52,686 nucleotides of DNA from Minisyncoccota bacterium (GCA_041675045.1 JBAYUP010000002.1:1-52686), one strand, 5' to 3'; counted from the first letter of the stretch, positions 24,664-27,837 are shown. Notes: generated by a model not told the origin, from the sequence alone. Translations and numbers: made by a program.

Positions 24664-25014
24664 TTATTGGTTATTCGACTTTTTAAGTTCAACATCAAGA
24701 GCGAGACCGCGGAGATATGAGAGAAGTACATTGAATGAAGCTGGTACGTTCGGCTCTCCGATTGTCTGACCTTTGATAATTGCATCGAATGTCTGAGATC
24801 GACCCATGATATCGTCAGATTTGATTGTAAGCATTTCGCGAAGTGTGTGTGCAGCACCATGACCTTCAAGTGCCCAGACCTCCATTTCTCCAAATCTCTG
24901 TCCTCCACCTTGAGCTTTACCTCCGAGTGGCTGTTGTGTGATAAGTGAGTATGGTCCGATTGAACGCATGTGCAATTTGTCTTCCACCATGTGGTGAAGT
25001 TTCAACATGTACAT
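24664..25014 (-). CDS. rpoB: RNA polymerase beta subunit, C-terminal 116 codons, in the same frame as the upstream part and separated from it by TGA-TAT
   Basis: [68 protein letters not shown] is the conserved C-terminal block of beta. Confidence 0.9.
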
Positions 25015-25017
25015 ATA

Positions 25018-27837
25018 TCAAATAGCGATATCCTGATCGAAAGCATCACCTGTTCGTCCGTCATAGAGTGTCACCTTTCCACTTTCTGGCATTCCCGCCT
25101 TAACGAGCTCTGCTTTGATTTCTGGAACAGTTGCTGATGAAAATGGAGGTACGATTGCCTGATATCCGAGGACATGTGCAGCATAACCCAAGTGCATTTC
25201 AAGAATCTGTCCAAGGTTCATACGAGATGGCACACCGAGTGGAGTAAGAATGATATCGATTGGTGTACCGTCAGCCATAAATGGCATTTCTTCTTCTGGA
25301 AGAATAACAGAGATAACACCCTTGTTACCGTGGCGACCAGCAAGCTTGTCACCCACAGAGATATTTCTGATTTGAGCGATTTCAACAATAATCTTTTTGA
25401 TGATTCCTGATTCAAGATTGTGTCCTTGGTCTCGAGAGAAAATCTTCACACCAACAACACGACCTTTTTTGCCGTGCTCAAGACGAAGTGATGTATCTTT
25501 CACATCACGTGCTTTTTCTGTAAAGATTGATCGGAGAAGGCGTTCTTCTGGAGTGAGTTCTGTTTCGCCCTTTGGTGTAATTTTACCAACGAGAATATCA
25601 TTCTCGCGAACTTCTGCGCCGACAACAATAATACCGTCTTCATCGAGATCCTTTAATTTATTTTCACCAACGTTTGGAATATCGCGTGTTGTGACTTCAG
25701 CACCGAGTTTTGTGTCACGAACATTACATACGAATTCAGTTACATAGATACTTGTAAATTTACTCTGCTTTACGAGTCGTTCTGAGAGAATAATCGCGTC
25801 TTCGTAGTTTGCTCCACCCCATGACATAAAGGCCACGAGCGCGTTCTGCCCGAGTGCAATTTGTCCACGGTCGGTTGTTGATGTATCAGCAATAACTTGA
25901 CCCTTCTTCACATGATCACCGAGAGACACACTTGGTCGCTGGTGCAAAATCGAGAAGTTGTTTGTACGAGAAAATGTAACCAATGGATATGTATGATCTT
26001 TGTTCTTGTCGTCCTTAATAGTGATTTTCTTTGCATCAACATACGAAATCGTACCTGAAACTTCGGCAACAATAAGACGTCCTGAGTCACGTGATGCAAG
26101 CTCTTCCATACCTGTCGCTACAAGTGGCGCTTCAGGAATAATACATGGGAGGGCCTGCTTCTGCATGTTACTTCCCATGAGTGTTCGGTGAGCATCATCG
26201 TGTTCAAGGAATGGAATCATTGAAGTCGCAATAGAGAATGCTTGGTTTGTCGCAACATCAATATAATCAACATCTTTTTTGTCGATAAGTCCTGGGTTTG
26301 TAGAAAGACGTGCCTCAACTTTTTCATCGAGGATATTACCCTTCTCATCATAGTTCGTACCCGCGTGCGCGATGTTTACTCGCTCTTCCTCAAGCGCGTT
26401 TAAGTAGACAACTTCACTAGTGATCTTGCCGTTCTTAACCTTGATATATGGTGTTTCGATAATACCGAATGAATTAATTTTCGCGTATGTTGAGAGGTGA
26501 AGGATGAGACCGATGTTCGGACCTTCTGGAGTGTGAATAGGACACACACGACCATAGTGCGATGTATGCACGTCACGAACTTCGAGACCTGCACGTTCAC
26601 GAGTAAGACCTCCTGGTCCAAGCGCAGAGAGCGTACGAAGGTGTTCGACTTCGGCCATCACGTTTTCTTGGTTCATGAATTGTGAAAGCTGGTTCGCAGT
26701 AAAGAATTCTTTAATACGAGCTTGGAGTGGTCGCTGGTTGATGATTTGAATAGGCATTGTTGTGCCGACATCAATAGTCGACATGCGATCTTGAATATTA
26801 CGCTTAATCTGCGCCATACCCATACGAACTTTCTGCTGGAGCATTTCACCTACATAACGAACACGACGCTGACCCAAGTGGTCGATATCATCAGCTGTTG
26901 CGTGAGGTGTATTGTTTAGCTCTATAATATGAGAAACGATTGCGACAACATCATCACCAGAGATAGTGCGACGTTCCATTTCTTTGTCTGCCATACTCTT
27001 GTCGAAACGCTTGTTGAATCGGAAACGACCAACAGGAGAAAGGTCGTAACGTTCACCAGAAAGAAGCGCGGTGATAAATTCACGTGCGTTATCAGGTGTT
27101 GCGAGGTCGCCATCACGAAGTCGCTTGTATATTTCAATATATGAGTCAGAGAGAGTTTTTGCAGGGTCTTTTTCGAGACAGATTTTAAGTGCCTTGATAA
27201 CTTCCTCGTTCTTACCGAAAGCCTTGGTCATAGCTTCATCAGTTGTAAGTCCGAGTACACGAAGAAGAGACGCAACAGAGAATTTGCGCTTTTTGTCGAT
27301 ACGAACATAGACTGCTCCATCCGCATCTGATTCTATTTCAATCCATACTCCACGAGCTGGAATAATTTTTGCACCAAAATATCGCTTACCCTTTTGTTCT
27401 TGTTCTGTGAAAAATACACCGAATGAACGAGTAAGCTGTGGGACAATAACACGCTCAACACCATTGATGATGAATGTACCGTGCTTTGTCATGAGTGGCA
27501 CATCTGCCATAAAAATTTCTTGTTCTTTTGATGTACCGATACTCTTGTTGAGCAAACGAACGCGCGCCTTGAGCGGACCTTCGTATGTCAATTTATTTAT
27601 TTTTGTATACTCTTCATCAAACTTTGGCTCACCAAGTGAGAATGACGCGAAGTCGAGTTGAAACTTTTTCTCTGAATAATCATTAATGGGAGAAAATTCT
27701 TTAAACACTTCCTTAAGTCCACTTTCAACCAACCAATTGAATGAGACAAGCTGATTCTCAATCAAATTAGGAAACTCGACCAACGGTTTTTTGTACCGTG
27801 AAAAATACTTCTTCTCTCGTGTTGCTGTTTTTTTCAT
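25018..27837 (-). CDS. rpoB: RNA polymerase beta subunit, N-terminal 939 codons ending at an in-frame TGA (25018-25020). The full gene is 24664-27837 if the TGA is decoded.
   Basis: Conserved beta motifs throughout: FIINGVERVIV, GPGGLTRERAG, HYGRVCPIHTPEGPNIGLI, NMQKQALP, AGRHGNKGVIS. The ORF stops at ...DAFDQDIAI, where homologues continue with G-[YI]-MYM. Confidence 0.95.
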   Translation of the reverse strand: MKKTATREKKYFSRYKKPLVEFPNLIENQLVSFNWLVESGLKEVFKEFSPINDYSEKKFQLDFASFSLGEPKFDEEYTKINKLTYEGPLKARVRLLNKSIGTSKEQEIFMADVPLMTKHGTFIINGVERVIVPQLTRSFGVFFTEQEQKGKRYFGAKIIPARGVWIEIESDADGAVYVRIDKKRKFSVASLLRVLGLTTDEAMTKAFGKNEEVIKALKICLEKDPAKTLSDSYIEIYKRLRDGDLATPDNAREFITALLSGERYDLSPVGRFRFNKRFDKSMADKEMERRTISGDDVVAIVSHIIELNNTPHATADDIDHLGQRRVRYVGEMLQQKVRMGMAQIKRNIQDRMSTIDVGTTMPIQIINQRPLQARIKEFFTANQLSQFMNQENVMAEVEHLRTLSALGPGGLTRERAGLEVRDVHTSHYGRVCPIHTPEGPNIGLILHLSTYAKINSFGIIETPYIKVKNGKITSEVVYLNALEEERVNIAHAGTNYDEKGNILDEKVEARLSTNPGLIDKKDVDYIDVATNQAFSIATSMIPFLEHDDAHRTLMGSNMQKQALPCIIPEAPLVATGMEELASRDSGRLIVAEVSGTISYVDAKKITIKDDKNKDHTYPLVTFSRTNNFSILHQRPSVSLGDHVKKGQVIADTSTTDRGQIALGQNALVAFMSWGGANYEDAIILSERLVKQSKFTSIYVTEFVCNVRDTKLGAEVTTRDIPNVGENKLKDLDEDGIIVVGAEVRENDILVGKITPKGETELTPEERLLRSIFTEKARDVKDTSLRLEHGKKGRVVGVKIFSRDQGHNLESGIIKKIIVEIAQIRNISVGDKLAGRHGNKGVISVILPEEEMPFMADGTPIDIILTPLGVPSRMNLGQILEMHLGYAAHVLGYQAIVPPFSSATVPEIKAELVKAGMPESGKVTLYDGRTGDAFDQDIAI

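Follow-up and report, generated by a model that had tools for sequence, protein, structure and literature searches.

The in-frame TGA codon that interrupts rpoB in the stretch of DNA analyzed here (52,686 nt, referred to below as the window) is, with good confidence, an isolated single-base difference in this assembly, the true codon being GGA and the organism one that uses the standard genetic code. The TGA almost certainly reflects a single-base error or a rare variant rather than an altered genetic code, and we do not regard it as a real biological feature. The features of the rpoB region that bear on this reading are as follows.

24664..27837, minus strand: complete rpoB gene (RNA polymerase beta subunit), 1057 codons with codon 940 taken as Gly, colinear with Paceibacteria RpoB
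25018..25020, minus strand: in-frame TGA at rpoB codon 940; base 25020 is T on the minus strand and A on the plus strand
25018..27837, minus strand: open reading frame under code 11 for a 939-aa N-terminal RpoB fragment
24664..25014, minus strand: 116-aa C-terminal RpoB fragment that begins at an ATG two codons past the TGA, a gene-calling artifact
21019..24639, minus strand: rpoC, immediately downstream of rpoB and intact

Within 25062..24976, the minus strand reads GCT TTC GAT CAG GAT ATC GCT ATT TGA TAT ATG TAC ATG TTG AAA, in exact agreement with the codon string that a first-pass annotation of this DNA had reported. Translation of 27837..24664 meets a single internal stop, at codon 940. 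Beyond it, 117 sense codons continue in the same frame up to a TAA, which confirms the earlier count of the codons that lie past the TGA. When codon 940 is read through, RpoB residues 1-1057 match Paceibacteria RpoB from end to end with up to 94% amino-acid identity, and the Pfam domains Rpb2_1, 2, 3, 45, 6 and 7 are recorded on an identical 1057-aa public product. The best PDB match of the window RpoB has an E value of 2.8e-103. The colinear match, the Rpb2 domains and the conserved C-terminal motifs are those of a full-length RpoB. In solved bacterial beta subunits, that of B. subtilis among them, the column occupied by the TGA holds the Gly of vGYMYMLKL / vGIMYMIKL, which bears out the first-pass claim that the TGA stands at a conserved Gly. 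Likewise, the ATG that had been pointed out two codons past the TGA is present in the quoted sequence. The 116-aa open reading frame that begins there is a gene-calling artifact rather than a gene in its own right. Two genes of 170 and 128 aa located upstream of rpoB were considered as rplJ and rplL; no Pfam match was found and the label was dropped.

The best RpoB relatives, which match over the full length with 72-94% amino-acid identity, are all labeled Paceibacteria, Nomurabacteria, Parcubacteria or Minisyncoccia. Judged by these protein matches, the organism is a Paceibacteria/Minisyncoccia (Parcubacteria) bacterium. The class name Minisyncoccia is the recent GTDB naming for these Parcubacteria.

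Comparison with a second, independent public assembly locates the difference precisely. For this comparison, ENA contig ERZ27247358:k141_2328093 (79,365 nt) was located through an exact match of the neighboring RpoC and was tiled from four fetched stretches. The window corresponds to positions 19..52704 of this contig in reverse complement, and the two sequences are identical at 52,685 of 52,686 positions. The sole mismatch is window base 25020, at which k141_2328093 has G and the codon is GGA (Gly). The RpoC protein of the window is 100% identical to the one encoded on k141_2328093, and rpoB on that contig is called as a single 1057-aa gene. Two public assemblies of one population, which may or may not share reads, disagree at one base. 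Because the other assembly differs only here, and has GGA, a single-base error or mutation from GGA to TGA is the option that we favor among the four that the first-pass annotation had listed.

Both versions have left their products in public databases. The 939-aa and 116-aa RpoB fragments are on record from JGI/IMG for the 52,686-nt contig, the NCBI annotation of the 52,686-nt contig contains a 92-aa C-terminal RpoB call, and NCBI and ENA list full-length RpoB with Gly for the 79,365-nt contig. The presence of the TGA version in two repositories is a point against the error reading, although it probably reflects one assembly that was deposited twice. We also considered whether the window derives from the ENA contig by alteration, and rejected this since JGI/IMG and NCBI list the truncated products for a 52,686-nt contig.

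The first-pass annotation had proposed a look at rpoB of related genomes for TGA or GGA at this site, and we read the codon column by tblastn across all 83 fetched rpoB-bearing loci. All 83 related loci carry GGN at this codon (37 GGT, 33 GGA, 7 GGC and 6 GGG), and no TGA, stop or split was found at this column in any of them. Among homologous open reading frames, 76 of 77 run more than 30 residues past the TGA of the window's rpoB, and this rpoB is the only TGA-ended open reading frame that is outrun by more than 30 residues by essentially all of its homologues, the exception being a fragment from locus L081. The L081 fragment is cut by a gap in a low-coverage contig. At the site itself, L081 (ERZ2271802, from another sample and approximately 97% identical) reads GGA. 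The aligned block that contains the site encodes a protein 100% identical to that of the window, so that all other differences of L081 from the window in this block are synonymous. A scan of JGI metagenome contigs and IMG/VR with the exact site pattern, carrying N at the variable base, gave a sole match among the JGI metagenome contigs (L096, 87% identical), which also has GGA, and no match in IMG/VR. The sequence difference between the two assemblies and the invariance of the Gly column are direct observations, and so is the termination of genes by TGA in this organism and its relatives, which is described below.

At base 25020, a G>T change in the coding-strand sequence (C>A when read on the plus strand) would turn GGA into TGA. 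This is the class of change that arises from oxidative (8-oxoG) damage to sequencing libraries. The T would most likely stem from an error of consensus or base calling where coverage was weak or the template damaged. Approximately 4% of random single-base substitutions in the window would give a premature stop, so one such error is unremarkable. Single-base assembly and sequencing errors are like the present case in the lone substitution, in the essential and otherwise intact gene that it strikes, and in the G>T class of the change. For window base 25020, we infer that the T is such an error rather than a true allele, with a consensus or sequencing error being the most likely source and a nonsense allele a less likely one.

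Such a nonsense allele would be real in the sampled population and would have won the consensus by chance in one assembly, whether it was carried by a minority or defective genotype or by one copy among several chromosome copies. We consider this unlikely, while giving it some weight as the main rival reading. Otherwise identical assemblies that disagree at exactly one base are what would be expected of a polymorphic site, and the TGA version genuinely exists in public databases. However, the allele would be non-functional under the standard code, as it would strip this essential enzyme of 118 C-terminal residues from its most conserved part, and it should not reach the frequency that is needed for a consensus call. 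Moreover, the other assembly has GGA and every relative has a Gly codon.

Much less probable still, and in our judgment very doubtful, is that the organism decodes UGA as Gly, either in the manner of code 25 or as an incipient reassignment, in which case GGA and TGA would be synonymous alleles. This reading draws on the fact that the TGA falls exactly on an invariant Gly column, on the rarity of TGA stops in the window (1/44), and on the fact that UGA reassignment has arisen in Patescibacteria, including reassignment to Trp within the class Minisyncoccia. Against it stands the use of TGA as a stop, both in the window and in related genomes. The gene of the window that ends in TGA is the following.

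6228..6563, minus strand: DUF1653 gene, 111 aa (Pfam E = 5e-13), with its TGA stop at 6230..6228

The more distant orthologues of this gene in six loci (L090-L095) have the same TGT-DUF1653-UvrB synteny and are followed by unrelated downstream DNA. They end 3-4 residues earlier than the window gene, at TAA TAA in L090-L093 and at TAG in L094 and L095, and the 19-residue tail that would be expected from read-through of the window gene is absent from all of these compared syntenic orthologues. Since the TGA of the DUF1653 gene lies at the orthologous C-terminus, it shows that TGA terminates translation in this genome. TGA is a rarely used, working stop codon here. A further homologue that is 93% identical (P0121) was rejected for the comparison of DUF1653 C-termini because its contigs share the TGA and near-identical downstream DNA and it is therefore not independent. 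A plus-strand open reading frame at 6234..6581 was set aside as spurious relative to the minus-strand DUF1653 gene on the basis of database gene calls and Pfam.

In the relatives, more than 20 TGA-ended open reading frames stop where TAA- or TAG-ended orthologues stop. In the closest reference genome (L001), whose RpoB is 94% identical to that of the window, the stop codon of the TrmD gene is a TGA embedded in an 11-bp hairpin with a U-run after it, and this terminator hairpin has a dG of -17.3 kcal/mol and a z score of -5.2. A relative this close thus uses TGA as a stop within a terminator.

The codon census of the window likewise argues against decoding of UGA as Gly. The 44 window genes comprise 16,357 sense codons, with 1,227 GGN codons versus one in-frame TGA, the one in rpoB. 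No in-frame TGA was found in any other real window gene in this 44-gene census, in keeping with the first-pass statement that the other large genes are intact under the standard code. Out of frame, TGA occurs 1,261 times in the same 44 genes, and it is therefore strongly excluded from their reading frames.

The stop codons of the 44 genes are 39 TAA, 4 TAG and 1 TGA, the last being that of DUF1653, so that TGA does end only one coding sequence, as had been claimed. Over 62 kb of the contig, database gene calls give 43 TAA, 8 TAG and 1 TGA, and a crude open reading frame call in 80 related loci gives 723 TAA, 182 TAG and 75 TGA. By this crude count, TGA accounts for approximately 8% of stops lineage-wide, and for fewer among the closest relatives. 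Low usage of TGA stops is a compositional trait of the whole lineage and co-exists with working TGA stops. Because of this baseline, the near-absence of TGA stops in the window is no signal; we dropped their scarcity as a significant observation, and the first-pass suggestion that it fits reassignment did not hold.

The tRNAs on the reachable 62 kb of the genome are tRNA-Thr(UGU) and tRNA-Ala(UGC), and no tRNA with a UCA anticodon was found in 32 related loci, which represent small parts of their genomes. A tblastn search with an approximate E. coli RF2 query found no RF1 or RF2 homologue in the window or in the 1.66 Mb of fetched loci, a partial sampling of the genomes. In a comparison of reassigned Minisyncoccia with code-11 genomes of this class, prfB was found in every code-11 genome but one (gTranslate preprint, doi 10.64898/2026.05.24.727570), which argues against decoding of UGA as Gly.

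The only known carriers of a UGA-to-Gly reassignment are Absconditabacteria and the 'Gracilibacteria' of BD1-5, in which tRNA-Gly(UCA) is present and RF2 absent (PMC8629427). The likeness of the window to code 25 lies in a TGA on a conserved Gly column, in a Patescibacteria genome and in the rarity of TGA stops. In code-25 genomes, however, in-frame UGAs are numerous at Gly columns, a tRNA-Gly(UCA) is encoded, RF2 is missing and no gene ends in UGA, whereas the window has one in-frame TGA in 16,357 codons, confined to 1 of 44 genes, and a genuine TGA-ended gene in DUF1653, as do its relatives. It also belongs to another class-level lineage, as its closest RpoB matches place the organism among Paceibacteria/Nomurabacteria-like genomes, outside GTDB class JAEDAM01 (orders Absconditabacterales and BD1-5).

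Reassignment of UGA to Trp (code 4) has been described within Minisyncoccia in the family JAKLIH01 and the genus GCA-2747955, whose genomes carry numerous UGAs at Trp columns, in most cases a tRNA-Trp(UCA), and no prfB (doi 10.64898/2026.05.24.727570, a 2026 preprint). These genomes are like the window in their bacterial class and in the codon involved. Code 4 is marked by UGAs at Trp columns in many proteins, whereas the only in-frame TGA of the window lies at an invariant Gly column and not at a Trp column, and TGA still ends a gene. As a counter-point to the error reading, the same bacterial class does hold UGA-reassigned lineages, though the reassignment is to Trp.

The window shows none of the hallmarks of reassignment that are testable here. 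The first-pass option of an early or relict stage of UGA decoding as Gly is contradicted by the TGA-ended gene, by the TGA stops of the relatives, and by the finding of no other in-frame TGA.

The least probable explanation, to which we attach next to no credence, is that read-through, selenocysteine insertion or a stop-restart split yields a functional polymerase from the TGA allele: an ATG does lie two codons past the TGA and UGA is the leakiest stop codon, but neither a stop nor a split is found here in any of the 83 relatives, the flanks of the TGA are ordinary coding sequence common to GGA-bearing relatives, and a general Rfam search gives only tRNA-Thr and no other RNA element in the window. 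Selenocysteine normally replaces catalytic residues of the Cys type and not a structural Gly, and the column here is an invariant Gly, not Cys. Restart at the ATG would drop the invariant Gly and the next Tyr within the conserved GYMYMLKL segment, as the first-pass annotation had itself anticipated in noting that a restart would delete the Gly and cut a conserved segment. The natural archaeal split of rpoB and the engineered splits that are tolerated lie in non-conserved regions. In the present case, no relative is split and the break falls within a conserved segment with loss of residues. The two first-pass options of read-through and stop-restart thus found no positive support.

A real TGA here, as an in-frame UGA on an invariant Gly of RpoB in a standard-code lineage, would represent stop-codon reassignment at its very start. 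To our knowledge, the very beginning of a stop-codon reassignment has never been observed directly. That the TGA allele is viable and this population is beginning to read UGA as Gly, in a very early capture of a stop codon in a lineage whose TGA stops are already down to a few per cent, strikes us as highly improbable. Low usage of TGA stops is by itself no evidence of reassignment in this lineage, and a lone in-frame stop in a MAG contig calls for comparison with reads or with an independent assembly before recoding is proposed.

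The rpoB gene of L081, the relative that is approximately 97% identical to the window, lacks 125 nt relative to window positions 25602-25726. The contig that carries it is a low-coverage one (cov 2.4, ERZ2271802). The gap shifts the reading frame and splits the rpoB gene call, making L081 a second case, besides the window, of an assembly-level break in rpoB.

Within the rpoB region at 24883-24906 (motif [24 protein letters not shown]), the window's RpoB has Gly at a position that is occupied by Phe in the solved structures of bacterial polymerases ([13 protein letters not shown]). 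Among 77 relatives, the residue that replaces Phe is Gly in 72 and Ser in the remaining 5. The substitution is a trait of the lineage. The next motif differs as well, reading AYGAAY in the solved bacterial polymerases and GHGAAH or GYGAAH in the window's lineage.

The gene is part of the following arrangement:

17878-29659, minus strand: rpoB, rpoC, dnaG and rpoD, head to tail on one strand

Directly upstream of rpoB are three small genes, encoding proteins of 170, 128 and 87 aa. This slot is usually occupied by rplJ and rplL; a Pfam match to L10 or L7/L12 is found in none of the three.

Domain matches identify a gene fusion elsewhere in the window:

37262-38170, minus strand: NusB and NUDIX hydrolase domains combined in one protein of 302 aa

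Both the full NusB domain (E = 6e-34) and the NUDIX hydrolase domain (E = 3e-16) are recovered, a combination that is, to our knowledge, unusual.

A further group of genes has no recorded Pfam match for any of its members:

43270-52686, minus strand: seven consecutive genes encoding proteins of 481, 298, 312, 333, 360, 336 and >1029 aa

All seven proteins have hydrophobic, signal-peptide-like N-termini, and one of them, of 312 aa, also carries a poly-Gly stretch. Paralogy within the cluster is partial: identity is 52% over 165 aa for the pair of 336 and 360 aa, and 31% for the pair of 298 and 481 aa. A similar cluster is present on contig L086 (Logan SRR6484325). The cluster may encode surface or secreted proteins.

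Downstream of the TGA stop of the DUF1653 gene and upstream of uvrB lies a 60-nt stretch (6168-6227) that differs at 1 position from L088 and L089, two contigs carrying the DUF1653 orthologue, despite only 93% identity between the DUF1653 proteins themselves. This stretch may contain a small ORF, or may serve uvrB as a conserved promoter or leader.

Throughout the Paceibacteria/Minisyncoccia group examined (the window and the related rpoB-bearing loci L001-L080), TGA is rarer than TAG as a stop. The window's stops are 39 TAA, 4 TAG and 1 TGA, and those of L001-L080, by a crude ORF call, are 723 TAA, 182 TAG and 75 TGA. The rarest bacterial stop codon is usually TAG, and the order here is the reverse of that ranking. 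Since UGA-to-Trp reassignments have been reported within the same class, Minisyncoccia, in a recent preprint (doi 10.64898/2026.05.24.727570), strong TGA depletion may be a state that predisposes this class to UGA reassignment.
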